This document shows, piece after piece, positions 1 through 63,963 of a stretch of DNA of 64,000 nt; positions within the stretch are counted from its first letter, which is position 1; every line of letters starts with the position of its first letter. The notes below the pieces were generated by a model. The model made no database searches. It was not told the DNA's origin and was given only the letters and a program-made list of their open reading frames with translations. Source of the DNA: an uncultured bacterium (GTDB lineage Bacteria > Hinthialibacterota > Hinthialibacteria > Hinthialibacterales > Hinthialibacteraceae); contig CAZKYC010000004.1 in the NCBI GenBank assembly GCA_964556895.1, positions 11,964 through 75,963 of the forward strand. Direction: 5' to 3'. The translations under genes and the position numbers were made by a program.

Positions 1-75
1 CGCAATCAAAAGCCAATAGATCAATCATAAAGCCTCACAGGTAAAATTCTAGATAGATTGAACGGAGGAACCGCC

Positions 76-819
76 ATGGCAGACAGCATCCGCGTTGTAG
101 TGAACGGCGCCAAAGGGCGTATGGGATCAGAAGCGGTCAAAGCAATCAACCAAGCGCCCGACGCTACCCTGGTGGGCGCGATAGACATGGGAGACGATTT
201 AGCCAAAACGATTGAGGCCGAAAAACCTGATATCGTCGTCGATTTCACGGTCCCAGACAGCGCCTTCACAAACACCTGTATTATCGCCGACTCGCCCGCT
301 GGCGGCGTGATTGGAACCACAGGCTTCTCAACCGAACAGATTCACGAGTTGCGCCAAAAAGCGGCGATGAAAAATCCCGGCGTGATTATCGCCCCCAACT
401 TTTCGATCGGCGCCATCTTGATGATGCACTGCGCTCACATCATCGCCCACCACATGCCCCATGTTGAGATCGTCGAGATGCACCACCCCTTCAAGCTCGA
501 CGCGCCGTCAGGCACCGCGGTCAAAACAGCCGACATGATGGCCCATGCGGTCAAAGACACCGATGTTCCATGTGGAACAAACGAACAACGCTCGCGCGGT
601 GAAGTGAATAATAACATCCCAATTCATAGTATCCGCCTGCCGGGTTACCTCGCCCATCAAGAAGTCATCTTTGGCGCCGACGGCCAGACGTTGACCCTGC
701 GCCATGATACATACCATCGTTCCTGTTACATGCCGGGCGTCATGATGGCCATTCGTGAAGCCATGAACCGCGGCGGCGTAACCTATGGGCTAGAAAACAT
801 CCTGTTTCCGGCGCAATAA
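76..819 (+). CDS. dapB: 4-hydroxy-tetrahydrodipicolinate reductase
   Basis: N-terminal GAKGRMG NAD(P)-binding motif and the E(M)HHxxKxDAPSGTA catalytic motif are both present. Length is about 247 aa. A GGAGGA RBS precedes the ATG at 76 (the track ORF starts earlier, at 58). The stop overlaps the rsmG start in TAATG. Confidence 0.9.
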   Translation: MADSIRVVVNGAKGRMGSEAVKAINQAPDATLVGAIDMGDDLAKTIEAEKPDIVVDFTVPDSAFTNTCIIADSPAGGVIGTTGFSTEQIHELRQKAAMKNPGVIIAPNFSIGAILMMHCAHIIAHHMPHVEIVEMHHPFKLDAPSGTAVKTADMMAHAVKDTDVPCGTNEQRSRGEVNNNIPIHSIRLPGYLAHQEVIFGADGQTLTLRHDTYHRSCYMPGVMMAIREAMNRGGVTYGLENILFPAQ

Positions 820-1538
820 TGGACAAAACCGCCTATTTTCTGGCGTTTGACGCCCATCTAAACCGACAAAACCTCAATGTGGAACCTGCGGCGATAGAAC
901 GTTGCAGGCTCTATTTTTATTTGTTACACAAAGCCAACCAAGCCACTAACCTTACCCGGCTTGATTTGCCTAATGAATGTATCGACTACCATCTCGTTGA
1001 TTCTCTCCATCTCTATGAGGCGTTGAAGACAGAGTCGCTGTCATCACTGATAGATGTCGGTTCTGGAGCGGGCGTTCCTGGAATTCTGATGAAATGCCTC
1101 AATCCAGACATTCGCTTATCTGTCATAGATTCCGTCAAAAAGAAGATGGACTTTGTCAACGCGGCGATTCAACAACTAGAGTTAAGCGAATCAAACGCAA
1201 TCGCTGAACGTGCAGAAGCGTTGGGGCATGATAGCCAACACCGTGAATACTATGACTGCGCCACGGCGCGGGCGCTGGGTTCTCAGTCATATTGTCTAGA
1301 ACTTTGCGCCCCATTTGTGAAGATGGGTGGAGTGGTTGCCTTGTTGCGCAGCGACATCGATGAAACCACCACGCCAGACCAATTTTTTGAAACCCTGGGT
1401 TGTAAGAAAGAAAGCACTCATGAATATCAATTACCTGGGCGAGATAAGGCGTTTCGAGTGGAAATTCACCGAAAAGTTTTAACAACTCAAGAAAAGTTCC
1501 CTCGAAAACCTGTGCAAATCAAAAAGCGTCCTTTATAA
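819..1538 (+). CDS. rsmG: 16S rRNA (guanine527-N7)-methyltransferase RsmG/GidB
   Basis: SAM-binding motif DVGSGAGVPGI and overall GidB-like length and order. Sits immediately upstream of parA-parB, as in the conserved gidB-parAB arrangement. Confidence 0.85.
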   Translation: MDKTAYFLAFDAHLNRQNLNVEPAAIERCRLYFYLLHKANQATNLTRLDLPNECIDYHLVDSLHLYEALKTESLSSLIDVGSGAGVPGILMKCLNPDIRLSVIDSVKKKMDFVNAAIQQLELSESNAIAERAEALGHDSQHREYYDCATARALGSQSYCLELCAPFVKMGGVVALLRSDIDETTTPDQFFETLGCKKESTHEYQLPGRDKAFRVEIHRKVLTTQEKFPRKPVQIKKRPL

Positions 1539-1614
1539 TCGTTTCACTTTGCTTTCGACGCGCCCCTCTGGTGTGTTTTGTTGAATTCATAAGGTTCTAC
1601 ATGGAACATTAACC

Positions 1615-2433
1615 TTGGCGAGAGTTATCTGTATCATCAATCAAAAGGGTGGAGTCGGAAAGACAACATCCGCTGTTAACCTGGCTGCCTGTCTGGCCGC
1701 CAGAGACAACGAAACTCTGTTGATTGATATTGATTCTCAAGGTAACGCTACCAGCGGCTTGGGTCTCAACCGGGCGGAACTGACAAAAACTATTTTTGAT
1801 GTTCTCATCGACGAAGTTCCGTTACACAGCATCTTGAAACCGACCAAACAGGCCAAATTGAGGATCGCGCCAGCCAACAGCGATTTGTTGTCGGCAGAAC
1901 TTCACCTGGCCAGCGACCCCGATGGAAAGCGTTGCCTTAGCCGGGCGGTGGTGAAATACTTTAACGAAACACCGCCAGCGGATCAGCCAAAATACATCAT
2001 CATTGACTGTCCGCCGTCATTAGGACAGTTGTCGATAAATGCCATCTTAACCTCAGATTCGGTGATTATCCCGGTTCAGTGTGAATATTACGCCCTCGAA
2101 GGCCTGACAGATATCTTGACCACCACCACCATGCTGCGGCGGAACTTCAATACGGGATTATCGCTTGAGGGCATTCTTCTCACCATGGCTGACCGCCGCC
2201 TCAACCTCAGCCATCAGGTTGAAGAAGAAATTCGCAGCGTGTATCGTGACTATGTGTTTCAGAGCGTGATTTACCGCAGCGTCCGATTGAGTGAGGCGCC
2301 CAGCCATGGTGCGCCGATTATTCAGTATGATCCACAATCGATTGGCGCCAAAGCCTACATGGCGCTTGCAGAGGAAGTGATTGGTAATGAAACGAAAAGC
2401 CCTCGGCCGTGGCCTCTCCGCCCTTCTGTCTGA
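1615..2433 (+). CDS. parA: chromosome partitioning ATPase ParA/Soj
   Basis: Deviant Walker A KGGVGKTT near the N-terminus and ParA-family length. TTG start. Followed by parB. Confidence 0.85.
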   Translation: MARVICIINQKGGVGKTTSAVNLAACLAARDNETLLIDIDSQGNATSGLGLNRAELTKTIFDVLIDEVPLHSILKPTKQAKLRIAPANSDLLSAELHLASDPDGKRCLSRAVVKYFNETPPADQPKYIIIDCPPSLGQLSINAILTSDSVIIPVQCEYYALEGLTDILTTTTMLRRNFNTGLSLEGILLTMADRRLNLSHQVEEEIRSVYRDYVFQSVIYRSVRLSEAPSHGAPIIQYDPQSIGAKAYMALAEEVIGNETKSPRPWPLRPSV

Positions 2434-3265
2434 TTCAAGCGTAGAGACGGTCGCCGAGCCTCAAGCCAAACGGATCGAAACCATTAAGGTAGGCGCGATA
2501 GAAGCCAACCGCTGGCAGCCGCGCACCCAGTTTGATGATGATCAACTGAAAGAACTCTCAGACTCGATTCGCGCCCAGGGCGTGTTGCAACCGTTGTTGG
2601 TGAGGCGCAAGCCTGACGGCGCTGACGGCTATCAACTCATCGCGGGCGAGCGCCGCCTGCGCGCCTCAAAGCTCGCCGGGCTTGAAAATGTACCGTGCAT
2701 TCTCTTGAAGGCCCAAGAAACCCAGGCGCTCGAGATCGCCCTGGTTGAAAACATCCAACGTAGCAATCTCTCACCAGTCGAAGAAGCCCGCGCTTACAAA
2801 CAGATGTCAGAGCGTTTCAACCTGACGCAAGAAGAGATTGCAGCCAAAGTGGGAAAAAGCCGCTCGGGCGTGACCAATTCGTTGCGCTTGTTACAGCTGC
2901 CCGTTTCTGTGCTGGATATGCTTGACTGCGGCGAATTATCAGTGGGCCACGCCAAGGTGTTGCTGTCACTGAAAGAACCCGACAAGATCGAAGCGATGGC
3001 CAAAAAAGTGGTTGGCGAAGAATTAAGCGTGCGTCAGTTAGAAGACCAGTTACATAGAAAGCCCGCTCTACCGCCTAGGCCCGTCAAACCTGCCCCCGAA
3101 GACAATGACGTTTTTGTTTCTGATATGAAGCGAAAACTCGAAGAAGCCCTCCAAACCAAGGTTGATATACGCATGAAAGGCAAAGACAAAGGGCGTATCG
3201 ACATTCATTTTTATGATTTAGATCAACTTGATCACATTTTATCGTTATGGAAAATTTCACTCTAA
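2387..3265 (+). CDS. parB: chromosome partitioning protein ParB/Spo0J
   Basis: ParB-box motifs are present (GERRLRA, plus an HTH region). An N-terminal KRKALGRGLSALL motif is also present. ATG at 2387 was chosen; an in-frame TTG lies at 2381. Overlaps the parA 3-prime end. Confidence 0.85.
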   Translation: MKRKALGRGLSALLSDSSVETVAEPQAKRIETIKVGAIEANRWQPRTQFDDDQLKELSDSIRAQGVLQPLLVRRKPDGADGYQLIAGERRLRASKLAGLENVPCILLKAQETQALEIALVENIQRSNLSPVEEARAYKQMSERFNLTQEEIAAKVGKSRSGVTNSLRLLQLPVSVLDMLDCGELSVGHAKVLLSLKEPDKIEAMAKKVVGEELSVRQLEDQLHRKPALPPRPVKPAPEDNDVFVSDMKRKLEEALQTKVDIRMKGKDKGRIDIHFYDLDQLDHILSLWKISL

Positions 3266-51022: not shown

Positions 51023-52657
51023 ATGTTACCGATATGTAAACAAACACTGGCTTTTCGAATGCGATCTGGAGTGATGACGAGAGGGCTAGGCGTGGTAGCC
51101 GCGGTCATGACTCTGTATCTTTTTATGCACGATCCGCTCATCTGCTCCGCAATGCCTTCGGAGGAAAGCGTCAAGTTAGGCAAAGACGTCGTCTTGTATG
51201 GAGAATTTGGCGCACGCGGTGATGGCGTGTCTGACGATATCGACGCCATTGCCAAGGCCCATGAATTCGCCAACCAGCACGGCCTCCCGGTGAGGGCCGA
51301 CGATGAGGCGACATATTACATCGGTGGGAAAGATAAGACGGTTGTCATACAGACCGACACCAATTTCGGATCGGCCAGGTTTATCATTGATGACACTTCT
51401 GTCGAAAACCGCAGTTCACACATCTTCGAGGTTCCATCGACACAGAAGTCATTTGACCTGAAAGGGATTTCCTCCCTAAAGAGAAACCAGTCCAAGATCA
51501 ATGTCTTGTTGCCCGATACCTGCCTGGTCCGCGTCACCAATTCTGGCGTCAAACACTATATCAGGTATGGCGCCAACCGTAACAATGGAACCTCGCAAAC
51601 AGATATCTTCATCGCTGACAAACAGGGCAATGTCGACATGAATGCCCCGATTGTTTGGGATTTCGACACGATTACGCGCATCACTGCCCAACCGATCGAC
51701 AAGACCCCATTGACAATCACCGGAGGACATTTCACCACCATGGCTAACAACGCTGAGTCGACCTACGCCTACTACGCACGCGGGATCGCGATACGCCGCT
51801 CTTCTGTTGTGGTCGATGGTTTAGAGCACCACATCATTGGCGAGGGAGACCACGGCGCACCCTATGGCGGATTCATCAACATTAGCAACTGCGTCAACGT
51901 GACGGTTCAGAACACCGTTTTGACCGGACACAAGACGTATCGAACAATCGGTTCTGGGGGAGTTGGAGTCTCCATGGGGACCTATGACATTTTACTCAAC
52001 CGGGCCCTGAATGTTTCCTTCATAAACTGCCGTCAGACCAATGATATCAAGGACCGCACATACTGGGGAATCATGGGTTCCAACTTCTGCAAGAACCTTC
52101 TATTCGACAATTGCACCTTCTCTCGTTTTGACGCCCACCAAGGTGTTGCCAATGCGACGATCCGCCATTCGACTCTGGGTCATATGGGAATCAACGCGAT
52201 TGGCAGTGGAACGTTCCTCGTGGAGAACACCACTGTCTATGGAAGAAGCTTCATCAACCTGCGTTCAGATTACGGCAGTACATGGCGTGGTGAGTTCGTA
52301 ATTCGAAACTGCACCTTTACGCCCGCGGGCGGCAACCCGGTCACCGCCAGTCTGATTGGCGGGTCTTACTCTGGGCAGCACGATTTTGGTTACACCTGTT
52401 ACATGCCTGAACAAATCACTATCGATACCCTTCACATCGACGACACCCAGCACCCTGATAATTACCCCGGGCCAGCCATCTTCTCGAATTTTAACCGGCG
52501 TTTCACAGATGGTTCTTATGTGGAGAAATATCCGTACATCAAGACCAAAGAAGTCATACTCAAGAACGTGACGACCGCCAGTGGCAAGCCCCTGAGGCTA
52601 AGCGACAACCCCTTCATGTTCAAAGATGTGACAGTTCGATTCATCAACCACGAGTGA
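51023..52657 (+). CDS. secreted right-handed beta-helix protein (pectate-lyase-superfamily)
   Basis: GEFGARGDGVSDDIDAIAKAHEFA, the same Pectate_lyase_3-type motif. Many NxT/NxS-rich rungs. Start uncertain: 51023 or the internal Met at 51062/51077. Confidence 0.5.
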   Translation: MLPICKQTLAFRMRSGVMTRGLGVVAAVMTLYLFMHDPLICSAMPSEESVKLGKDVVLYGEFGARGDGVSDDIDAIAKAHEFANQHGLPVRADDEATYYIGGKDKTVVIQTDTNFGSARFIIDDTSVENRSSHIFEVPSTQKSFDLKGISSLKRNQSKINVLLPDTCLVRVTNSGVKHYIRYGANRNNGTSQTDIFIADKQGNVDMNAPIVWDFDTITRITAQPIDKTPLTITGGHFTTMANNAESTYAYYARGIAIRRSSVVVDGLEHHIIGEGDHGAPYGGFINISNCVNVTVQNTVLTGHKTYRTIGSGGVGVSMGTYDILLNRALNVSFINCRQTNDIKDRTYWGIMGSNFCKNLLFDNCTFSRFDAHQGVANATIRHSTLGHMGINAIGSGTFLVENTTVYGRSFINLRSDYGSTWRGEFVIRNCTFTPAGGNPVTASLIGGSYSGQHDFGYTCYMPEQITIDTLHIDDTQHPDNYPGPAIFSNFNRRFTDGSYVEKYPYIKTKEVILKNVTTASGKPLRLSDNPFMFKDVTVRFINHE

Positions 52658-53616: not shown

Positions 53617-54369
53617 TTACGCCAGAAACGCCTTTTGTATCTCTTCGGGGGTGAGCAGGTCGTGGTCTAACAAGCCAGCGGCTTCTTCGGCTTCTAAAAC
53701 GCCTTTATTTTCGAGGATTTTGATCAGCGTGACCAACATACAACTGTTGGCGTAAATCACTTCGTCGGTTTCAAACCGGTTTTTGACTTCTCGCGCTTCG
53801 CTCGCTGATATCGGCCTGGGCTTCTCGGCGGCGCTTGGCTCTTCGGCTGGCTCATACGACTGTGGTACAGCGACAGGCTTTTCTGTCTTTTTATTATTAA
53901 CGATATAGGCCGCGTGCTCTGTGGCGGAAGGACGCGCAGGCGCCGCAGCCGAAGGTTGGGAGGCGTCGGGTTGCGCTTGAGTAGAGGCTGTGGCGTCAGG
54001 TTTTTTGTCAGGCTCTTTGGTTATCACATCGTCATACGATTTGACCGCCTCGGCGCGGGAGGAGAAGATTTCAAAGATTTCAAAGATGCGGTTTTGTTTG
54101 AGATATTCGACAACTTTGCGCTGGGGGTTGAGAAACTTGATGTTGCCGCCCGCCGCGCGCATCTCTTTCAGGTTTGAGATCAACACGCTGATGGTCTGGT
54201 TGCCGATAAAGCGCAGCATGGAGACATCAAGCACGACTTTGTAGATTCCGCTTTGGCAAAGCGCTTTGAGGTTCTTGTCGAGCTGCATATTGCTGCGCGA
54301 GTCCATATCGCCTGACATCGACAACACTGCGACGTCGCCGACTTGTTGCGTCTGAATCTTTATTCCCAT
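53617..54369 (-). CDS. STAS-domain protein (anti-sigma-factor-antagonist-like) with low-complexity linker and C-terminal domain
   Basis: The N-terminal 110 aa match the SpoIIAA/STAS fold pattern (VAVLSMSGDMD...LDVS...FIGNQ). An Ala/Pro/Ser-rich linker follows. Confidence 0.5.
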   Translation of the reverse strand: MGIKIQTQQVGDVAVLSMSGDMDSRSNMQLDKNLKALCQSGIYKVVLDVSMLRFIGNQTISVLISNLKEMRAAGGNIKFLNPQRKVVEYLKQNRIFEIFEIFSSRAEAVKSYDDVITKEPDKKPDATASTQAQPDASQPSAAAPARPSATEHAAYIVNNKKTEKPVAVPQSYEPAEEPSAAEKPRPISASEAREVKNRFETDEVIYANSCMLVTLIKILENKGVLEAEEAAGLLDHDLLTPEEIQKAFLA

Positions 54370-54501: not shown

Positions 54502-54714
54502 TTATGGTTCTTTGTTTTCTTCGATCTTGGCCGCGTCTTTTTCAGACTCTTTCTTTTCGCTGTCGTCTTCGTTAATGGCGCTGATTGACTTTTTAAACTC
54601 GCGGATCCCGGTACCGAGCGATTTGCCCATTTCAGGAAGACGCTTGGCGCCAAATAGCAGTAACACGATGGTCAAGATGATGAGTAGTTCCCAAGGGCCC
54701 ATGTTCCAAGGCAT
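54502..54714 (-). CDS. tatA: Sec-independent translocase subunit TatA/E
   Basis: [38 protein letters not shown] is the canonical TatA TM-plus-amphipathic-helix sequence. 70 aa. Confidence 0.75.
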
Positions 54715-54950
54715 TGTTTTTCTCCTTGCTCGAGAGGCCGGTTGGACGGCTGGAGGGTTCCAAAGCCGCTAAACGGCGCTGGTTGGTCGCCGTCGGAATT
54801 CTGTTTCAAGCCTCTTCACAGCTTAGTTATCATACTTGTCATGGGCGCCAAGTCAAGGATTTTCACACCCCGCCGCCCGTTTGCGCTTCACGCCAAGAGG
54901 AAGCATTATATACTACGCTTTCAGAACATACGAATAGTAAAGCGACCATT

Positions 54951-57047
54951 ATGACTGTGCGCAGCCGCCTGTTAGGCATCGACATCGATTCATTGACCGC
55001 CGAAGAGTTTCTCATACGCATCGATGACTACGTCATTTCTAAAACGCCGCACCAGATTTCGTACCTGAACGCCGACTGTCTCAACAAGTGTTGGTCAGAC
55101 CGGGCGTATCGCGAAACCATCGCGGCCTCAGACCTGGTCTACGCCGACGGCATGGGCGTCGTGTGGGCGTCGCGGCTGTTTGGCCATCCGCTGCCTGAGC
55201 GGCTCAACGCCAACGACCTGTTGCCTGAGTTTTGCCGCCGCGCCGAAGACAAAGGCCATCGCATCTTCCTGCTCGGCGGCGAACCGGGGGTCGCCGAAAA
55301 AGCGGCGGAGGATTTTCAACGCCGCCACCCCAATTTACAAATCGCCGGCCATCATCACGGCTATTTTTCAGAGAAAGAAGAAGCCGAGGTCATCGCCAAG
55401 GTTGGTGAATCGAAAGCCGACATCTTGATCGTCGGCATGGGCGCGCCCAAACAAGAACTATGGATTCAAAAAAACCTCAAAGCGCTGGGCGTCCCGGTGG
55501 CGTGGGGCGTGGGCGGGCTGCTCGATTATACCGCCAAAGACATCAAGCGCGCTCCGGTTTGGATGCGCAATGCGGGCATGGAGTGGCTTTGGCGCTTGTG
55601 TCTAGAACCAGGCCGCTTATGGAAACGCTATTTATTGGGCAATATTCTTTTCACATTCCGCGTCGGCATTCTGGTGTTCACCGACGCGCTGATGGCGTCG
55701 ATCGCTTGGGCGGCGGCCTACGCCATTCGCGCCTATGTGTTCCCGTCGCTTGAATTTTTGCCAGATTTTTTACAGCGTCCGCTCAATCCATTCACCAATT
55801 ATTTATACGCGCTGCCGGTCATTGTGTCGGTCTGGGTGTTGATCTGCGCCTCGTTGGATTTATATCGGCGGCAGTATATGAGCGCCGCGCTCGACGAGTT
55901 GTCAAACATCGTCAAGATGGTGTTTTTGTTTTTGATCACATCCATGGCGGTGGCCTTTTTATTGAAAGAGCTTGACCCGGGCCGGGCGGTGTTGATTCTC
56001 TCCGCCGTGTTGGCCTTCTTCTTGATCGTCGCCTCGCGCATGACCTGGGGCTATCTTGAAAAGAAGATGTTTGAAGAAGGCATCGGCCGCATCCGCGCCC
56101 TGGTGGTAGGCGACGGCGAACCGGCGGGCCGGGTGATTCAAAGCCTGCGCGCCCAGCCCCAAGGCAAGTATGAAGTGTTGGGCCTTCTCACTGATGAACA
56201 TGAAGTGGGCGAGATCATTCAAGAATGTCCGGTTCTGGGGCCGTCGGCGCAGCTGCCCGACTGGTCAAACACTTTAGTCGTCGACGAAGTATTTTTTGCC
56301 GACTCGCGGCTCGAGAAACGCGAACTGCTCAACCTGGTGGTGTCTTGCGGCGAACAGACCAACGTGCGCCAGTTTAATATTCTCACCGATATGTTTGGCA
56401 TGATCACTGACCGGGCGCTGTTTGACAGCGTTGACGACATCCCGTTTAAAGCGTTGCGTAAGCGCCAGCTCTCGCCATTTGAACAAGCCTGCAAACGCTC
56501 GGTTGACGTCGCTTGCGCCGGGTCGCTGCTGTTGCTCGCTGCGCCGTTCTTTCCGATTATTTGTCTGATGATTCGCCTGTGTTCGAAGGGGCCGTCGATC
56601 TTTAGTCATGAGCGCATCGGCAAAGACGGCAAGCCGTTTATCATGTATAAGTTTCGCACCATGTACCGCAACGTCAACGAATATCAGGAAGCGCCGATAC
56701 GCAAAGACGACCCGCGGGTGTTGCCCTTAATTGGCCGCATTCTTCGCCGCACCAGTTTGGACGAGTTGCCTCAACTATGGAACGTGTTCAAAGGCGAGAT
56801 GAGTATGGTGGGGCCGCGGCCTGAGATGCCCTTCATAGTCAAGTCGTATGAACCCTGGCAGCGCCAGCGGTTGTCGGTGCTGCCCGGCATCACCGGGTTG
56901 TGGCAGATCAGCGGGCGAAAAGACCTGCCGCTTCATTCAAATTTAGAATACGATTTTTATTACATTCAAAACCAGTCGCTGTTGTTTGACCTGATTATTC
57001 TTCTCAAGACAGTCCCCGTCGTCCTCTTCGGTAAAGGTGCGTATTAG
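54951..57047 (+). CDS. fusion protein: GT26 (WecG/TagA/CpsF) glycosyltransferase domain + WbaP-type polyprenyl-phosphate phosphoglycosyltransferase
   Basis: Residues 1-250 span the whole GT26 fold (GIDIDSLT...ADGMGVVWASR...FLLGG...GMGAPKQELWI...EWLWRL). Then four TM helices and a RALVVGDGE Rossmann-like domain. The C-terminal Bac_transf domain has PRPEMPFIV...LPGITGLWQISGR. ATG 54951 was chosen because the longer track ORF overlaps tatA. Confidence 0.7.
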   Translation: MTVRSRLLGIDIDSLTAEEFLIRIDDYVISKTPHQISYLNADCLNKCWSDRAYRETIAASDLVYADGMGVVWASRLFGHPLPERLNANDLLPEFCRRAEDKGHRIFLLGGEPGVAEKAAEDFQRRHPNLQIAGHHHGYFSEKEEAEVIAKVGESKADILIVGMGAPKQELWIQKNLKALGVPVAWGVGGLLDYTAKDIKRAPVWMRNAGMEWLWRLCLEPGRLWKRYLLGNILFTFRVGILVFTDALMASIAWAAAYAIRAYVFPSLEFLPDFLQRPLNPFTNYLYALPVIVSVWVLICASLDLYRRQYMSAALDELSNIVKMVFLFLITSMAVAFLLKELDPGRAVLILSAVLAFFLIVASRMTWGYLEKKMFEEGIGRIRALVVGDGEPAGRVIQSLRAQPQGKYEVLGLLTDEHEVGEIIQECPVLGPSAQLPDWSNTLVVDEVFFADSRLEKRELLNLVVSCGEQTNVRQFNILTDMFGMITDRALFDSVDDIPFKALRKRQLSPFEQACKRSVDVACAGSLLLLAAPFFPIICLMIRLCSKGPSIFSHERIGKDGKPFIMYKFRTMYRNVNEYQEAPIRKDDPRVLPLIGRILRRTSLDELPQLWNVFKGEMSMVGPRPEMPFIVKSYEPWQRQRLSVLPGITGLWQISGRKDLPLHSNLEYDFYYIQNQSLLFDLIILLKTVPVVLFGKGAY

Positions 57048-57093: not shown

Positions 57094-58206
57094 TCACTCT
57101 CTCACTTGCAGGTAATGCCAAATCTGTTCGCTGGCGCCGTCTTGGGTGACAACGCGGATGCGATAGGCCAGGCCCTGATGGTTGCGCATCGGCGGCAGGC
57201 CCCATATCGCGTATTGAGATTCAGCGTCATGAAAGCGCACCGGCTTGGGCAGCGCCTCAAACGGCAAGCGCAAGCCGTATTGAACCTCACAAATGATTGA
57301 TTCAATCTTGAACTCACGCGGCAGTTGAGCGTAGAGCCTGACCGCGCTTTCAGTCGTGGGGCGGGTTGGTTCATGATAAACAGAAAATGTCGAGAAAAGA
57401 TCGCTGCGGTCAATTTGGGTTGGCGTCCAATTGAGCGCCTGTTTTTGGTCGTCATCGACCCAGGCCGCTTGAATCGAATCGACGTATTGCGCCAGGCCCA
57501 TCACCGAATTGTTGATCGGCTCGGGGTGAGGCAGGCCGATAGCGTGGCCGATGCCCTCGTGATAAGTGACGCCGTCAGTGCCTTTGATAGGGACGCGCCA
57601 ACCGTCAGCCGTGACCAGGCCCAGGCCAATGTGTTTATCGGGCCAATAGACCGACCGCGACCCGCCCGCCCGCGTACCGGGGCGGTCTTCGCCGTTGCTG
57701 ATGACAAAGCCGTCACAACGGCTGTGAGGCGGCCCCAAGAAACAGCGCGTCGGGTCGCAAGCGCGCATCCAATCGTCGTAACCAGGCGAAAAATTACAAT
57801 CAGCCATCACCAACAAGATCGGGAAGGCGCCGTCTCTCCACGCGACGGCGCCTGAATGCCGCACCTCATTCATGATCTGCCAATAAAACGTGTTGACGTC
57901 GTCTTGGGGGAACCCGTTTGGCGTGGCCGAAGCGACGAACGGCCCAGCCATTATGTTGTATGTAAACCGTGACTGCCCGGCGAATTCTCGTTGATGAAAT
58001 TTTTTACTTCGCTCGAGGTGATAGTTTACCCGCTCGCGCCAGTCGGGCAGCGGCACCGCGCCTTGAGCGATGTAATACACCACCTGAACGTCGATTTCAT
58101 CGATGGCGTCGTCGCCGTTGAAGGCGTGCATCTGAGACACCGACGCCGGAGCAGCGAACACGAAAATACAGATAGCCAACAGGGCAACTCGTAAAAACCG
58201 TTTCAT
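57094..58206 (-). CDS. secreted protein with HExxH zinc-metallopeptidase-like motif
   Basis: Signal peptide. HEGIGHAIGLPH (HExxH plus a downstream His) near residue 215. Confidence 0.4.
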   Translation of the reverse strand: MKRFLRVALLAICIFVFAAPASVSQMHAFNGDDAIDEIDVQVVYYIAQGAVPLPDWRERVNYHLERSKKFHQREFAGQSRFTYNIMAGPFVASATPNGFPQDDVNTFYWQIMNEVRHSGAVAWRDGAFPILLVMADCNFSPGYDDWMRACDPTRCFLGPPHSRCDGFVISNGEDRPGTRAGGSRSVYWPDKHIGLGLVTADGWRVPIKGTDGVTYHEGIGHAIGLPHPEPINNSVMGLAQYVDSIQAAWVDDDQKQALNWTPTQIDRSDLFSTFSVYHEPTRPTTESAVRLYAQLPREFKIESIICEVQYGLRLPFEALPKPVRFHDAESQYAIWGLPPMRNHQGLAYRIRVVTQDGASEQIWHYLQVRE

Positions 58207-58824: not shown

Positions 58825-60435
58825 ATGAAGAGCTCAATTCAATCTAATTTAGCGTTTGCGTTGCCGCTTACGGTCATGGCGTTGGTCGTATTCGCCATTG
58901 TAGGCCAGTCCTATTCGGTTGCTACCCGCGTACTCTACCCGATAGACGACCCCTACATTCATTTGGCGATGGCGCGCCATTTCGCTGAACATGGCCTATG
59001 GGGCGTGTCGCTCGCCGGGTTTAGCGCGAGTTCGTCTTCACCCGGATGGACCGCTCTGTTAGCCAGCGGGTTTTATCTGTTCGGTTCTCAAGAATGGCTG
59101 CCGCTCGCGCTCAACATGGCCGCTGGTCTTGCCCTCATCTGGCTGTTTTGCGTCTATTTGATCCACCAACAATGGCATTGGGCCGCTGCAGGCGCAACCG
59201 CAACGCTTGTGTGTTTTGTTCTTCCCCTGCCCGCCTTGGTTTGTTTGGGCATGGAGCATACCGTTCATGTTTTGTTCGCCGCGTTGCTGGCCTATCTGGC
59301 GGCGCGGCAGCAAACTGAAAGCCCAGATTCTTCCCCCAGTTTGTTGTTTTGCACAGCGGCCGTCGCCACCGCCTTTCGTTTTGAAACCGTCTTTGTGGTT
59401 GCTCCACTGGCGTTGATGTTTATCGCGCGAAAGCAATGGAAGACCGCGCTGGGCGCGACCATCTTTAGCGCGCTGCCGATTGTCGTCATGGGCGCAATTC
59501 AACTCGCCAACGGATGGGAATTTTTCCCGGCGTCTATTGTACGCAAGAGCGTCTTGGGCCAAGCCGGACTGGCGTTTTATTCGCAACTATACACGCGCTT
59601 GTTTGGGCAATTGTTTAACACCGGGCATCTACTGGTTCCGTATGTGTTGTGTCTGGTGGTGTTCTGGCGTAAGAGCGGCCGACCCTGGAGCCAAGAGCGC
59701 GTATTGAGCGGGGTGTATTTGTGCGCCGCGCTGCTGCATTGCGCCGCCGCGTCGATTGGTTGGTTTTACCGCTACGAAGCCTACCTGTTGGCCATCGCCT
59801 TTCTGGCGCTGGCGCCGCTGGGGCCAGAACTCTGGCAAAAATGGAAGACGCTCGCCAGCGAATCTTCATTCACCGAGCGTTGGACGCTCAGGGCCCTTGC
59901 GCTGGCGGCGGCGATTCTACTCACGACGCCCTATGTCTGGAACGCATCGTCAATCGCCAAAATCGCGCCCGGTTCTACCAACCTGTTTCAACAGCAATAC
60001 CAAATGGGATTGTTTTTGCGCGAGTATTATCAGGGCGAAACCGTGGCCGCCAATGACATTGGCGCGATCAACTTTCTGGCTGACATTCGTTGTCTTGATG
60101 GGATGGGTCTGGGCAGCCGCGAGCCGTCGCTGGCGGCGCAGCGCGGGCGCCTCAACGCGGATTTCATTGACACATGGGCGCGCCAAGAACAAGCGGCGAT
60201 CGCGGTCATCTATGAAAATTGGTGGGACGGACGGCTGCCCGCCAGTTGGATCAAGATGGGCGAGTGGACCGTTGACCAAAAAGTGTCGGTCGCTGAGCCG
60301 ACGGTATCATTCTATGCAACTGCCCCGCTTGAGGCTGAACGGTTATACGCCTGTTTAAAGCAATTCACCCCGCGCCTGCCCGACGGGGTATCGGTCGTTT
60401 TGGCCGAGAAAGACGTCCCGGCGCCGACACAGTAA
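58825..60435 (+). CDS. polytopic membrane protein, GT-C-fold glycosyltransferase-like (ArnT/PMT-like)
   Basis: Twelve or more TM helices. The first extracytoplasmic loop has a YPIDDPYIH acidic motif reminiscent of the GT-C DD/DE motif. Large C-terminal soluble domain. Confidence 0.35.
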   Translation: MKSSIQSNLAFALPLTVMALVVFAIVGQSYSVATRVLYPIDDPYIHLAMARHFAEHGLWGVSLAGFSASSSSPGWTALLASGFYLFGSQEWLPLALNMAAGLALIWLFCVYLIHQQWHWAAAGATATLVCFVLPLPALVCLGMEHTVHVLFAALLAYLAARQQTESPDSSPSLLFCTAAVATAFRFETVFVVAPLALMFIARKQWKTALGATIFSALPIVVMGAIQLANGWEFFPASIVRKSVLGQAGLAFYSQLYTRLFGQLFNTGHLLVPYVLCLVVFWRKSGRPWSQERVLSGVYLCAALLHCAAASIGWFYRYEAYLLAIAFLALAPLGPELWQKWKTLASESSFTERWTLRALALAAAILLTTPYVWNASSIAKIAPGSTNLFQQQYQMGLFLREYYQGETVAANDIGAINFLADIRCLDGMGLGSREPSLAAQRGRLNADFIDTWARQEQAAIAVIYENWWDGRLPASWIKMGEWTVDQKVSVAEPTVSFYATAPLEAERLYACLKQFTPRLPDGVSVVLAEKDVPAPTQ

Positions 60436-60489: not shown

Positions 60490-63400
60490 TTATTCAACAG
60501 TAAAGCGAAAGGTGTTGTTCTGGTGGGTCTCTTCGTCGACCCGTTCATCGGGGTCGATGACGATTTCGAAATATTGAATATTGGCCGGGATGCGAATTCG
60601 GTTGGCGGTATAGCGCTGGCCAGGGCCTAGGCTAACGATCTCTGGAACGTAATGCTTCAGCCGTTTGTCAGACCCCTGATAGGCGAAGGCCATTTCGATC
60701 AATAGTTTCTCTACCGGACTTTCGCCATTGTTGATGATTGAAAAGTCGACGCGAACGCGCTTGCCGTCTTCGATGGGGGTCAACTGAAAGCGGTCTTCTT
60801 CGACCAACAGGTCGGCCTTGCGGCGAACCGTGACAGCCGCGTCATGAGTATTGTTATCGTCGTTGTCTTCTTCAATCTGGCCGAACGGGTCGACCGTCAT
60901 CTCAAGGTCAAAGCGCCCGGGGTTGGCGGTTGGGTCCCAGCGCAAGCGCACGGGTTTTGATTCGCCCGGGTCGAGCCGTTCAATTCTCTCGCCGCGCTGG
61001 CCGACCACGACATGAAAGGGCGCTTTCTTTTGGCCAACTGGCGCCTGACTGCCCTGAACAAACACATCTAACGCAGTCGCGCCGCCTTTGTTTTCGATCA
61101 CGCCGCTGAGAAAAATGGTCTCGCCCGACCGCGGCGAGGGTGGCGTCACCCTGACCGAACCCGGCTGTATAACGAGATCAGGCAAGCGCCCGGTTGTGGG
61201 TTCGATGATGGCGGGCGCCTCGCGCTCGAAGGGCTGAGCGCCGTGTGAGACGACGATTCGCCCGTCGCGTTTTGACAGCGCTTCGGCCCCAACAATGAGG
61301 CCGTCATGGCCAATCATATCAAACTGCGCAGCGATTGGTTCTAATTTGTTTTGCATGGTGGCGTAGTAGACCACATCGCTGCCGCTGCGCGCCCAGGCGG
61401 CGGCGTGTTGAGGGAGACGATTAAATGAGCGGCCGTCTTGTTGAAGATCTATCTGGGAACCTTGTAGGTTTACAGCCAGTTGAAGCGGGCGAAACTCTGG
61501 AAGCCGAATGGTCGGGTCGCCCAAAAAACAAAACTGGTCAGCGGGTTCAAACACTTGTTGATAGGCCAAGCCGATCAGGTTGCCCGCGAGCAACACCTGC
61601 CCCATGGTTGACAGGCCATAGTGAAACAGCGCTTCGTGAATGCCCCGCGCCAGAATGATGTGGTCATGCGGGTAGCCCCGCCCCGCCGCGCCCAATAGGC
61701 CCACCGCGCCGCCATTGGGGTGAATCAACAGATCTTCGCCGATAGAGATGTTCCATTTTTGGCGTGGATAGTCAAAGGTAGTGGTCTCGCAGCTGAACGA
61801 CCAAAACAGAAAGGGCCGCTCTTGGTTGGTCAGCTTTTTTACATCGGTGAAGCGCGACCCGCCGCCAAAAAACAGGCGCTCGTTGCCCACTACATTAGGC
61901 GCGCCGTGGCCAAAAAACTGCATTAGCCAGACGCCTTCGTTCAAGATGCGAATCACGTCGCGGGTGGCGGCCAGGCTGGTCTTGGCGCGGTTAGCGGCGC
62001 GCAGTTTTTCAGGCAGGTAGATGTTGTCAATCAACGGATACTCTTTGACATGGCGCTGGGCCAGCCGAAACCCTTGGGGGATCCATTCGTCGACGAGTTC
62101 TTCCGTAAAACGGTCAAACCCGTGGTCGGTCAAAACAAACATTTTGTTTAGCCACGGCGCTGGCTCGATCTCTTCTTTGTAGCGGACCGTCTTATGAATC
62201 AATGTTGCGAGTTCGTCTTTCGAACGCAGCGGCCAACGCCCGATCATCATGTCCGGCGCCGCGTCGCCCTCGCCGTCTAAACAGACAAACCAGTTTTCGA
62301 CCGCGTAGTTGGGATGAGCGCGATAGCCGGGAACATAGTTCTTTACGCCAACCCCATAGCGGTTGTGGTAGTCCCACGAGGCGTCGCCGATCAGCAAGAC
62401 ATACGACGGCGAGGGGCGCTTCCAGGTTTGGTAGGCGTAGCGCAAAAACTCGCGCACGGCGAACGGAGACAAGCCCCCATCGCCAAAGCGGTCATAGATG
62501 GCTTCGATGGAGGCGGTCCTCACGGTATACCCCAGCCTCATGAGCGAATCGCGAAACGGCGCCAGGGTTGAACGCCAATCTGACGGCGCAATCAATACGA
62601 CATCAGACTGAGACAGATTTAACAAATCGTTGACGGCGAGGCTGGTTGGGTCATAGAGTTTGAGTCGGGGGCGAGTGATAAAACGGTTTGCCTTATCCAC
62701 ATATAAATCGCCGGCGCCATATGAATAGATTACTGAATCGTTATTTGAAATGGTCGCTGGCTGGCTCTCATCATCAGGCAGCCAAATCGCGCGTGAGAGG
62801 TCTGGCAATGGTATGACTAACTCGCCAGGCGGGGTTTGATAGGCGTTTGTCGACGGTAGTATGTTTGTCGCATAACTCACGTCAAACCAGTCAAGATAGA
62901 GTTCGTCAAATACCCGTTGAGTGGTCGCAGAATCAACGCCTTTGAATGAAAGACGATGGGTGTGTTTTGTGATTAAATCTCGCGATACATCACCGGTTGC
63001 GGTGATATAGCCTGTCCCGGTTGAGACTGTCCAGTCAATAAGGGTTCCATCAAGGGCCGGGGTGACATGTTTGACCAACAATTCAGAGCGGACATTGCCG
63101 ATATAAAAGCGCATTTTAATTGCGCCGGTTGCCGAAAAGGCAGTCTCATTGAAGCGGTAGTCAAACTCTGGCGTCGCTTGATTGAGAAGGTCGGCCCACA
63201 TCCAATGTTGGTTTTGTTCTTCATTGGTAGACTTTCCGTCAATAAAAATATGGTCTTGTTCTAACCGTTTGGTTTGGAGGAGAGGGACGACTCGGTCTGA
63301 TTGTTTTTTCTGTGTAGTTTCTTCAAACACGCGGGCCGACTCTGGGTCGACAGCAAACCAAGTCACGGTTTCGGTGGCGAAGGCGCTGTCTGACGCAGGC

Positions 63401-63963
63401 GCATGAAACACGATTGAGTCACCGTCAGTTAACAAGCCCTGTCGTTTGACGGCGCCATCATTGTTAATTATCGCCCGCGGGATTGGCTCGCCCTGTTGAA
63501 ACAGCGCCAGGCGCGATGAGTCTAAATCTTGTTCAAAGACGCCTAACAAGTCGCTGGCGCGCAGTGAGACGGCGCCCTGGGTTTGATGGACCAACTTCAC
63601 CGCCCGTGTTTCATGATAGGGCGCGACGGCAAACTCTTTGGTTGACGCAATCGTTCTCAGCGGTTCATTCAACAGCAACGCGCTGGCGATTGGCGCAATA
63701 TCATTCGGGAACCCATCAAACCGCATGGGATCAAGTTGATTAAATTGGACGCGAATCTTGCCGTTCGGGAACGAGACGGTGTCCTCCGCCGCGCTGGAGT
63801 AGTAAAAACGCAGCTGCATCGACGCGATGCGCGCGCCCGCCAGATAGCCCAGTTCATGAATGGTCAAGCGAGGTTGGGTCCGGCGCGGGTTCTTTTTTTT
63901 AAAATCCGCCTGGTCGCCTGACTGAGGGGTAGCGCCGTGAACCTGCCAATCAAACGAAACCAC
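60490..63963 (-). CDS. large peptidase C25 (gingipain)-like domain protein, 5-prime end beyond window
   Basis: Central region has ...LLIGDASWDY..., FFGHGAPN (candidate catalytic His) and FSCETT (candidate catalytic Cys) in gingipain-like spacing. Ig-like beta-rich regions flank it. No signal peptide at the first in-window Met, so the true start probably lies beyond 64000. Confidence 0.45.
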   Translation of the reverse strand: MVSFDWQVHGATPQSGDQADFKKKNPRRTQPRLTIHELGYLAGARIASMQLRFYYSSAAEDTVSFPNGKIRVQFNQLDPMRFDGFPNDIAPIASALLLNEPLRTIASTKEFAVAPYHETRAVKLVHQTQGAVSLRASDLLGVFEQDLDSSRLALFQQGEPIPRAIINNDGAVKRQGLLTDGDSIVFHAPASDSAFATETVTWFAVDPESARVFEETTQKKQSDRVVPLLQTKRLEQDHIFIDGKSTNEEQNQHWMWADLLNQATPEFDYRFNETAFSATGAIKMRFYIGNVRSELLVKHVTPALDGTLIDWTVSTGTGYITATGDVSRDLITKHTHRLSFKGVDSATTQRVFDELYLDWFDVSYATNILPSTNAYQTPPGELVIPLPDLSRAIWLPDDESQPATISNNDSVIYSYGAGDLYVDKANRFITRPRLKLYDPTSLAVNDLLNLSQSDVVLIAPSDWRSTLAPFRDSLMRLGYTVRTASIEAIYDRFGDGGLSPFAVREFLRYAYQTWKRPSPSYVLLIGDASWDYHNRYGVGVKNYVPGYRAHPNYAVENWFVCLDGEGDAAPDMMIGRWPLRSKDELATLIHKTVRYKEEIEPAPWLNKMFVLTDHGFDRFTEELVDEWIPQGFRLAQRHVKEYPLIDNIYLPEKLRAANRAKTSLAATRDVIRILNEGVWLMQFFGHGAPNVVGNERLFFGGGSRFTDVKKLTNQERPFLFWSFSCETTTFDYPRQKWNISIGEDLLIHPNGGAVGLLGAAGRGYPHDHIILARGIHEALFHYGLSTMGQVLLAGNLIGLAYQQVFEPADQFCFLGDPTIRLPEFRPLQLAVNLQGSQIDLQQDGRSFNRLPQHAAAWARSGSDVVYYATMQNKLEPIAAQFDMIGHDGLIVGAEALSKRDGRIVVSHGAQPFEREAPAIIEPTTGRLPDLVIQPGSVRVTPPSPRSGETIFLSGVIENKGGATALDVFVQGSQAPVGQKKAPFHVVVGQRGERIERLDPGESKPVRLRWDPTANPGRFDLEMTVDPFGQIEEDNDDNNTHDAAVTVRRKADLLVEEDRFQLTPIEDGKRVRVDFSIINNGESPVEKLLIEMAFAYQGSDKRLKHYVPEIVSLGPGQRYTANRIRIPANIQYFEIVIDPDERVDEETHQNNTFRFTVE

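Follow-up and report, generated by a model that had tools for sequence, protein, structure and literature searches.

We describe here a gene at positions 54951-57047 on the plus strand of a 64,000-nucleotide stretch of DNA (hereafter the window; contig CAZKYC010000004.1, assembly GCA_964556895.1) from an uncultured bacterium of the candidate phylum Hinthialibacterota. In agreement with a preliminary description made from the sequence alone, profile searches, sequence alignments and a predicted fold all indicate that the gene product is a single polypeptide, in which a complete GT26-type glycosyltransferase (GT) is followed by four transmembrane (TM) helices, a Rossmann-like domain and a WbaP-type phosphoglycosyltransferase (PGT). 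Judging from their intact catalytic residues and the predicted fold, both halves look catalytically competent, and we consider it likely that the protein acts as a bifunctional inner-membrane enzyme, which would produce a polyprenyl-diphosphate (PP)-linked disaccharide by two consecutive reactions on the membrane's cytoplasmic face.

The N-terminal part of the protein matches the Pfam family Glyco_tran_WecG (PF03808) at amino acids (aa) 60-227 over the entire profile (positions 1-168 of 168; E 9.7e-68, 227.7 bits against a cut-off of 27.4), so that the GT26 domain is indeed complete, as had been proposed. It is followed by CoA_binding_3 (PF13727; aa 301-463, E 1e-12) and by Bac_transf (PF02397; aa 515-692, profile positions 1-178 of 179, E 1e-60, 204.8 bits). 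The NCBIfam models divide the protein in the same way, with TIGR00696 wecG_tagA_cpsF covering aa 55-230 (148 bits, cut-off 69) and TIGR03025 EPS_sugtrans, the model for exopolysaccharide (EPS) polyprenyl glycosylphosphotransferases, covering aa 248-698 (395 bits, cut-off 296). Hydropathy analysis revealed four TM segments at about aa 231-259, 283-304, 319-339 and 346-366 as well as a hydrophobic, proline-containing re-entrant PGT helix at aa 517-546. In an AF2 model built on a 33-sequence alignment (mean pLDDT 84.3, pTM 0.68; pLDDT about 90 over aa 10-200), the helices of the TM bundle span aa 220-266, 281-301, 313-337 and 345-375. The first of these is unbroken across the GT26/TM junction, so the last helix of the GT26 appendage runs straight on as TM1 of the bundle. 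Strands and helices alternate between aa 381 and 477, and this Rossmann-like domain gave weak Foldseek matches to nucleotide-binding folds. When the whole model was compared with the PDB using Foldseek, WbaP ranked first, followed by TagA/TarA chains and then PglC.

The reading frame is free of stop codons from 54714 to 57047 on the plus strand. Translation from the ATG at 54951 yields 698 aa, and homologues of 696-703 aa, aligned with 100% coverage, start at this ATG or at most two codons from it. The GTG at 54957 is an alternative start, and this is where the 91% identical homologue P0001 begins. A longer open reading frame (ORF) of 777 aa from the TTG at 54714 was rejected in view of these homologue starts at or near the ATG, and also because the extension overlaps the tatA divergent region.

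The preliminary description had allowed for a sequencing frameshift or a stop codon in the linker, which would mean two separate genes. A frameshift or the loss of a stop codon during sequencing or assembly could in principle have joined adjacent GT26 and large PGT genes, and separate GT26 and PGT genes do sit near each other in some relatives, which suggests that the ancestral state was probably two genes. We found no evidence supporting such an artefact and regard its probability as negligible, as the frame contains no stop codon and the architecture is conserved and collinear. A protein search returned 439 relatives at E <= 1e-10. The relatives P0001-P0076 show 41-91% identity along the full length and come from independent NCBI, JGI, ENA and Logan assemblies; all carry PF03808 and PF02397 and nearly all PF13727. 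The same order, GT26 followed by four TM helices, PF13727 and PGT, is common to 78 clusters at 90% identity. The junction between the GT26 domain and the TM bundle, a single continuous helix in the AF2 model, is free of indels in an alignment of 33 homologues and among its best-conserved stretches; R215, R222, L223, W224, R226, Y227, G230, F234 and R237 of the junction and appendage are invariant. At the codon level, dN/dS against the 91% and 78% identical orthologues was 0.03-0.16 for GT26 core, TM bundle and PGT domain; the Rossmann-like segment falls in this range when compared with the 78% orthologue. These are rough values, as dS of about 1-1.5 is near saturation. Saturation was reached in the short appendage segment as well as, for the 91% orthologue, in the Rossmann-like segment. 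These low ratios clearly point to purifying selection on both enzymatic halves.

The first 227 residues give a gap-free alignment with TagA from T. italicus (PDB 7mpk; E 3.7e-48), and the predicted structure of the GT26 half superimposes on TagA/TarA with target-normalised TM scores of 0.94-0.96 and an rmsd of 1.1-1.4 A at about 38% identity in the Foldseek alignments, which places it in the GT-E fold. In TagA, Asp65 acts as catalytic base, the C6-OH of ManNAc is positioned by Thr37 and the UDP leaving group is stabilised by Arg221 (PMC6493773). The corresponding positions are occupied by Asp66, Tyr38 and Arg222 in the fusion protein, and all three residues are invariant among the 33 homologues (41-91% identity), as are R84, Q168/E169, R215 and R226. 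The replacement of Thr37 by an invariant tyrosine argues that UDP-ManNAc is not the donor, and the second sugar is probably not ManNAc. Position 38 is T, Y, F, V, L, H or N among the GT26 subgroups, including clearly functional ones, which fits a residue determining specificity. The scores against the models for TarA (NF041710, 136.8 against 350 bits) and WecG (NF002980, 112.8 against 323 bits) were both far below the equivalog cut-offs.

TagA/TarA (5wb4, 7mpk) and E. coli WecG are the founding GT26 or GT-E enzymes, and the fusion protein shares with them the fold, the catalytic aspartate, Arg84 and the arginines of the appendage. TagA and WecG, the best-characterised GT26 enzymes, act after polytopic primers of the WecA/TagO type, whereas the natural partner of the GT26 domain described here is a monotopic PGT (monoPGT). 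The C-terminal appendage of TagA serves as a membrane anchor, forms part of the active site and is required for catalysis; via this appendage, the free protein switches between an inactive cytosolic dimer and an active membrane-bound monomer (PMC6493773). TagA is a peripheral protein, whereas in the fusion protein, which also has Tyr38 in place of Thr37, the appendage is joined to TM1. This would hold the active site of the GT26 half at the membrane next to the PGT domain at all times, unlike that of free TagA, which is recruited from the cytosol.

The C-terminal part of the protein aligns with WbaP (8t53) over aa 261-698 (E 2e-41) and with PglC (8g1n; E 1e-31). The LDELPQ motif, which contains the Asp604-Glu605 dyad, and the GPRP motif are identical to those of WbaP and PglC, and D519, D604, E605, P607, Q608 and G621-E625 (GPRPE) are invariant in the 33 homologues. 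The PGT motifs quoted in the preliminary description are present (GPRPE and GLWQISGR), as is LDELPQ. With PF02397 including the re-entrant helix, the dyad and the PRP motif, and with a four-TM bundle (aa 231-375) and PF13727, this half has the architecture described for large PGTs (Lg-PGTs, WbaP-type; PMC10942596), and shares all of these elements with WbaP/WcaJ-type enzymes such as S. enterica WbaP (PDB 8t53). It differs from them by the additional N-terminal GT26 domain of 230 aa and in scoring below the equivalog cut-offs for both WbaP (UDP-Gal; TIGR03022, 281 against 403 bits) and WcaJ (UDP-Glc; TIGR03023, 331 against 411 bits). As all scores against the NCBIfam equivalogs were below the cut-offs, we dropped an assignment of the sugars on this basis; the first sugar is probably a hexose, as the WcaJ and WbaP models are top-scoring though below their cut-offs.

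We propose the following mechanism. In the first step, the C-terminal monoPGT domain, held on the cytoplasmic side by its re-entrant helix together with the four-helix bundle, would transfer a sugar-1-phosphate from a UDP-sugar to polyprenyl phosphate. With an even number of TM helices and a cytoplasmic PGT domain, the topology suggests that the GT26 domain is cytoplasmic too, where nucleotide sugars are available. In the second step, the N-terminal GT26 (GT-E) domain would attach a second sugar, supplied by a nucleotide sugar, to the polyprenyl-PP-monosaccharide, with Asp66 acting as the base and Arg222 of the appendage stabilising the departing UDP. The consecutive nature of the reactions, a local hand-over of the intermediate (channelling) and the fate of the product are parts of this model that we infer. 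The same two-step logic, a monoPGT followed by a GT26 enzyme, is known from HfsE/HfsJ (Caulobacter holdfast), PrmA/PrmH (Sphingomonas promonan) and GumD/GumM (xanthan), GumM being a member of GT26. These pairs consist of two polypeptides encoded in or near polysaccharide clusters, whereas the fusion is one polypeptide encoded by an orphan gene; with regard to the monoPGT partner, they rather than TagA/WecG are the apt precedents. WecG-family GTs add the second sugar to an undecaprenyl-PP (UndPP)-monosaccharide, and HfsJ and PrmH are thought to act on UndPP-Glc produced by the polyisoprenyl-phosphate hexose-1-phosphate transferases (PHPTs) HfsE and PrmA (PMC11340318). Unfused proteins were compared by scanning one genome per species, which mostly returned plain large PGTs. 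Of the four unfused Lg-PGT loci that are closest (40-42% identity), L010, L012 and L045, but not L011, have a separate GT26 gene within about 3 kb of the PGT gene. Together with the pairs described in PMC11340318, these neighbouring genes indirectly back the assignment of the two halves to the first and second step, which we consider reasonable.

Several observations weigh against such a bifunctional enzyme. The gene is an orphan in the window and in close relatives, with no flippase, polymerase or further GT gene nearby, and our literature search found no biochemical characterisation of any GT26-LgPGT member. In addition, the pTM of the model is only 0.68, which bears on the relative placement of the two active sites. 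Finally, the exchange of Thr37 for tyrosine and the scores below every equivalog cut-off mean that the GT26 half is not equivalent to TagA or WecG. One might speculate that only one half is catalytic, either because the GT26 domain is a pseudo-enzyme that serves as a scaffold, a sensor of lipid-linked sugars or a regulator of the PGT, or because an inert PGT domain anchors an active GT26 domain. In favour of this, the ManNAc-contacting threonine of TagA is replaced by Tyr38, and the wider family does contain proteins with apparently extra or degenerate copies (PGT-GT26-PGT and GT26-GT26). However, position 38 also varies among clearly functional GT26 subfamilies, D66, the arginines of the appendage, the QE motif, the Asp-Glu dyad, GPRPE and the aspartate of the re-entrant helix are all invariant, and dN/dS is low in both halves, so that we regard an inactive half as very unlikely.

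Alternatively, both halves might be active but not act consecutively. The GT26 domain could use a different acceptor, for instance an Und-PP-HexNAc made by a WecA-type enzyme, or catalyse a later step, in which case the fusion would provide co-localisation or a fixed stoichiometry. The classical GT26 enzymes indeed use Und-PP-GlcNAc made by polytopic PGTs (for WecG, see PMC11340318), and the orphan position of the gene supplies no pathway context. On the other hand, fusions between GT26 domains and monoPGTs have arisen recurrently and independently, in both orders and with small as well as large PGTs, and GT26 genes adjoin the closest unfused Lg-PGTs, which together argue for a direct functional pairing. 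HfsJ and PrmH, moreover, are GT26 enzymes thought to use the PHPT product UndPP-Glc. We therefore think it unlikely that the two reactions are uncoupled and favour the synthesis of a lipid-linked disaccharide in two consecutive steps.

GT26-PGT fusions are frequent in the databases and neither rare nor new in kind. When 267 fetched proteins were classified with the domains of the window protein itself, 78 had its architecture (GT26-4TM/PF13727-PGT), 79 were direct GT26-PGT fusions, 13 had the order PGT-GT26 and three PGT-GT26-PGT, 12 were GT26-GT26 proteins and 69 plain large PGTs. The tandem GT26-GT26 proteins (about 495-760 aa; P0129, P0142, P0109, P0116) constitute a separate architecture, and counting matched stretches alone mistakes such tandems, for example P0129, for GT26-PGT fusions. 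After clustering at 50% identity, the window architecture comes down to about five representatives of full length, namely P0028, P0066, P0121, P0211 and the like, besides a few that are truncated, and at least 40 representatives of direct fusions between GT26 and a small PGT (SmPGT) are found among the top 150 matches. Fused genes are present in metagenome-assembled genomes (MAGs) labelled Hinthialibacterota or 'Omnitrophota', Acidobacteriota, SAR324, Chloroflexota and Cyanobacteria, in Gammaproteobacteria (cultured Shewanella and an Oceanospirillaceae MAG) and in Desulfobacterota (Desulfogranum japonicum). An exact-sequence search for the window protein gave no record; the closest homologues (91% identity) are labelled Candidatus Hinthialibacter, phylum Hinthialibacterota. 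The names given in RefSeq cover only one half, being either 'exopolysaccharide biosynthesis polyprenyl glycosylphosphotransferase' or 'WecB/TagA/CpsF family glycosyltransferase'.

The fusion falls into a published class, the bifunctional monoPGTs (Bi-PGTs), in which, according to PMC11257628 and PMC10942596, GTs are fused N- or C-terminally to the PGT core; several of these proteins are under purification (PMC12776464). As in this class, a monoPGT domain is covalently joined to another pathway enzyme, and by its architecture the protein carries a second catalytic domain on a monoPGT core within one polypeptide, an arrangement kept in 78 clusters. The definition given there separates Bi-PGTs from Lg-PGTs, whereas the fusion is both, with a GT on the N-terminus of a complete large PGT. 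Our literature search, which covered papers other than the primary 2021 Bi-PGT survey, found none describing the GT26-LgPGT arrangement.

More distant fusions are encoded in different surroundings, which speak for the proposed synthesis of a lipid-linked disaccharide. Homologues with 44-45% identity (L005, L089 and L090) lie inside Wzx/GT/methyltransferase clusters and have a Wzy_C(-TPR) gene directly 3' (Table 1). At L005 and L090, the fusion gene is located between such a cluster and type IV pilus genes (N_methyl pilins, PilM, T2SSE/F). The layout of this branch is reminiscent of pilin or general O-glycosylation with a Wzy_C enzyme of the PglL/TfpO type. The direct GT26-SmPGT fusions of the Shewanella/Desulfogranum type also have the GT26 domain, which is 41-49% identical to that of the window protein, N-terminal to Bac_transf; they differ from the window protein in lacking the four-TM bundle and PF13727 and in carrying an extra 200-290 aa at the N-terminus. 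In some of the direct fusions, this extension gives a weak second Bac_transf match and is perhaps a degenerate PGT domain. Furthermore, the Shewanella/Desulfogranum genes reside in syp-like Wza/Wzx/Wzy loci together with STAS, kinase and phosphatase genes, whereas the window gene is an orphan.

The fusion gene and tatA are divergently transcribed, and a gene for a long STAS-domain protein lies downstream of tatA (Table 1). The block consisting of one or two STAS genes and tatA divergent from the fusion gene is kept in the window and in loci with fusion proteins of 91% (L007), 78% (L001), 70% (L091) and 60% (L003) identity, but not in L009 (73%), and the genes beyond STAS differ among the relatives (PvlArgDC, DNA methylase, SprT). 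In a reciprocal metagenome scan with an alignment of the long STAS protein, which yielded short contigs and was informative for three loci, tatA was directly upstream at all three orthologous loci, and the divergent fusion gene was present on both contigs that reach far enough. Orthologues of the long STAS protein were found only beside tatA and a divergent GT26-LgPGT gene (L001, L003, L007, L091, L094-L096), and tatA occupies the divergent-neighbour position in L001, L003, L007, L091, L094 and L096. Besides its STAS domain, the protein has a linker rich in P, A and E and a conserved C-terminal helix, ANSCMLVTLIKILENKG (ANSCML-TLIK-LE-KG). By comparison with a SpoIIAA reference sequence, it contains FIGNQT in place of F-x-DSSG, and the phospho-acceptor serine is thus absent. 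The hallmarks of partner switching were not found in the window, with neither a phosphorylatable serine in the STAS protein nor a kinase or phosphatase domain among the Pfam-scanned ORFs.

All three loci examined with Shewanella/Desulfogranum-type fusions are syp-like and contain a module of STAS, HATPase_c_2 kinase and response regulator (RR)/SpoIIE phosphatase genes. A canonical STAS gene is located directly 3' of the fusion gene in L092 (Desulfogranum japonicum) and L093 (JGI metagenome), with another STAS gene ahead of the kinase gene. The full order at these two loci is fusion, STAS, a gene for a hexapeptide/Bac_transf protein, STAS, HATPase_c_2 kinase and GT2, with genes for an RR-SpoIIE phosphatase and Wza nearby. 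In L006 (Shewanella baltica), RR, SpoIIE, HATPase_c_2 and STAS genes are found about 7 kb upstream of the fusion gene, before Wza. With an HMM for STAS, two unrelated groups of GT26-PGT fusions proved to have STAS genes next to them, whereas about 68 loci of plain large PGTs had no STAS ORF within 10 kb; this HMM was trained on the positive loci, which represent perhaps two independent evolutionary events.

There is a precedent for a link between STAS domains and PGTs. Anabaena All4160, a STAS-Bac_transf fusion, is controlled by phosphorylation of its STAS domain, and such proteins are widespread in cyanobacteria (bioRxiv 10.64898/2026.04.08.717354). In these cyanobacterial STAS-PGTs (Anabaena All4160, Synechocystis XssP), STAS, whose phosphorylation governs polysaccharide synthesis, is fused to the PGT and has a phosphorylatable serine, whereas the STAS protein of the window is separate, encoded in the tatA operon, and lacks this serine. 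The precedent and the STAS genes beside the fusions make a direct regulatory link between STAS and the PGT plausible, albeit with a low probability. One might even speculate that the conserved unit is a three-gene module, composed of the long STAS gene and tatA on one side and the divergent GT26-LgPGT gene on the other, in which the STAS protein would directly regulate the priming enzyme in a phosphorylation-independent manner; we regard this as a rather doubtful proposition. For the STAS protein SypA of V. fischeri, the target is still unknown (PMC4517449).

The window itself represents ordinary chromosomal DNA, with genes such as dapB, rsmG, parA, parB, panBC and bioAD and those for EF-G and PEPCK. 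dapB, rsmG (gidB), parA and parB follow each other in a row (58-3265), suggesting that the window lies near the chromosomal replication origin. As had been noted in the preliminary description, the fusion gene lies outside a classical polysaccharide locus, and the same is true for relatives with 51-91% identity. No Wzx, Wzy, Wza or Wzz domain was detected by Pfam in the 45 scanned window ORFs, each 150 aa or longer, a scan that left out five ORFs at 37.7-46.8 kb. A polysaccharide locus elsewhere in the 64 kb was rejected, as the scanned ORFs include only an isolated epimerase and a GT4 gene about 41 kb away. With respect to the flanking genes named in the preliminary description, tatA and the STAS gene are borne out by Pfam and NCBIfam matches, but the motif of the secreted neighbour had been misread as HExxH and is HExxxH. 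This 370-aa signal-peptide protein is encoded at 57094-58206 on the minus strand, convergent with the fusion gene, and its motif HEGIGHAIGLPH (HExxxHxxGxxH) is one residue longer than the metzincin motif HExxHxxGxxH. It has no Pfam or NCBIfam match and is not kept beside the fusion gene in relatives. A functional tie to this or other downstream genes (DUF4416, a 536-aa membrane protein) was rejected because the neighbours differ in every relative; TrpD, GFO_IDH, MetY and UPF0150 are found there in others. The 536-aa polytopic membrane protein (58825-60435, plus strand) has no Pfam match and, as its only match, a weak one to NF047440 (E 0.024; LA_3751/LA_3752 putative glycosyltransferase) and is possibly a GT-C-like enzyme; synteny of its gene with the fusion gene is not seen in relatives. 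A cluster of proteins that are likely secreted or located at the surface comprises a pectate-lyase-like protein (PF12708; 49432-50736, minus strand), a 544-aa protein without Pfam match (51023-52657, plus strand) and a Peptidase_C25 (gingipain-type) protein of 1157 aa that has CARDB domains (60490-63963, minus strand). In the spacer between tatA and the fusion gene, a promoter scan yielded four sites, including 54887-54914 (plus) and 54856-54829 (minus), compared with 2.0 +/- 1.1 in shuffled sequences, and we do not regard this as an excess. A terminator scan gave nothing above the shuffled expectation.

Table 1. Positions of the fusion gene, its predicted domains and associated genes in the window, and of related loci with a Wzy_C gene (coordinates of those loci)
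Feature	Position	Strand	Basis or remarks
GT26-LgPGT fusion coding sequence, complete	54951..57047	+	698 aa plus stop codon; ORF table, Pfam, NCBIfam, homologues of equal length, codon check
GT26 / GT-E core, aa 1-194	54951..55532	+	catalytic Asp66 (55146-55148), Arg84, Tyr38 (55062-55064); TagA alignment, Foldseek
GT26 C-terminal appendage, aa 195-230	55533..55640	+	Arg215, Arg222 (55614-55616), Arg226; aligns to TagA 194-225
Four-helix TM bundle, large-PGT type, aa 231-366	55641..56048	+	hydropathy, AF2, TIGR03025; WbaP 8t53 alignment from aa 261
Cytoplasmic Rossmann-like domain (PF13727; 'DUF' of Lg-PGTs), aa 367-505	56049..56465	+	Pfam, AF2, Foldseek
Monotopic PGT catalytic domain, aa 506-698	56466..57044	+	re-entrant helix (56499-56588), Asp604-Glu605 (56760-56765), GPRPE (56811-56825)
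Divergent intergenic spacer, tatA versus fusion gene	54715..54950		236 bp; weak sigma-70-like matches on both strands
tatA	54502..54714	-	TIGR01411, 72.8 bits
Long STAS-domain protein, 250 aa, downstream of tatA	53617..54369	-	PF01740; STAS at aa 4-107
Fusion plus Wzy_C(-TPR), 44-45% branch	L005 10001-14164; L089 4927-8873; L090 8001-12213		

Taken together, the fusion does not define a new category, and its practical value is modest, namely an improved annotation and a candidate for biochemistry. It can nevertheless be regarded as a natural 'Rosetta stone', which would tie a GT26 enzyme and a monotopic PGT together as consecutive partners and may thereby aid the assignment of acceptors for uncharacterised GT26 enzymes. 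It would also provide a single-chain construct to study how a lipid-linked intermediate is handed over at the membrane, with a GT26 appendage that is fixed to a TM helix, whereas that of free TagA is a reversible membrane switch. Of all its aspects, only the linkage to STAS and tatA might open up something unforeseen. If true, regulation by the STAS protein would extend a 'partner-switching-like' control of polysaccharide initiation to a candidate phylum, and the link between STAS and the PGT would offer a candidate target for orphan STAS regulators such as V. fischeri SypA.

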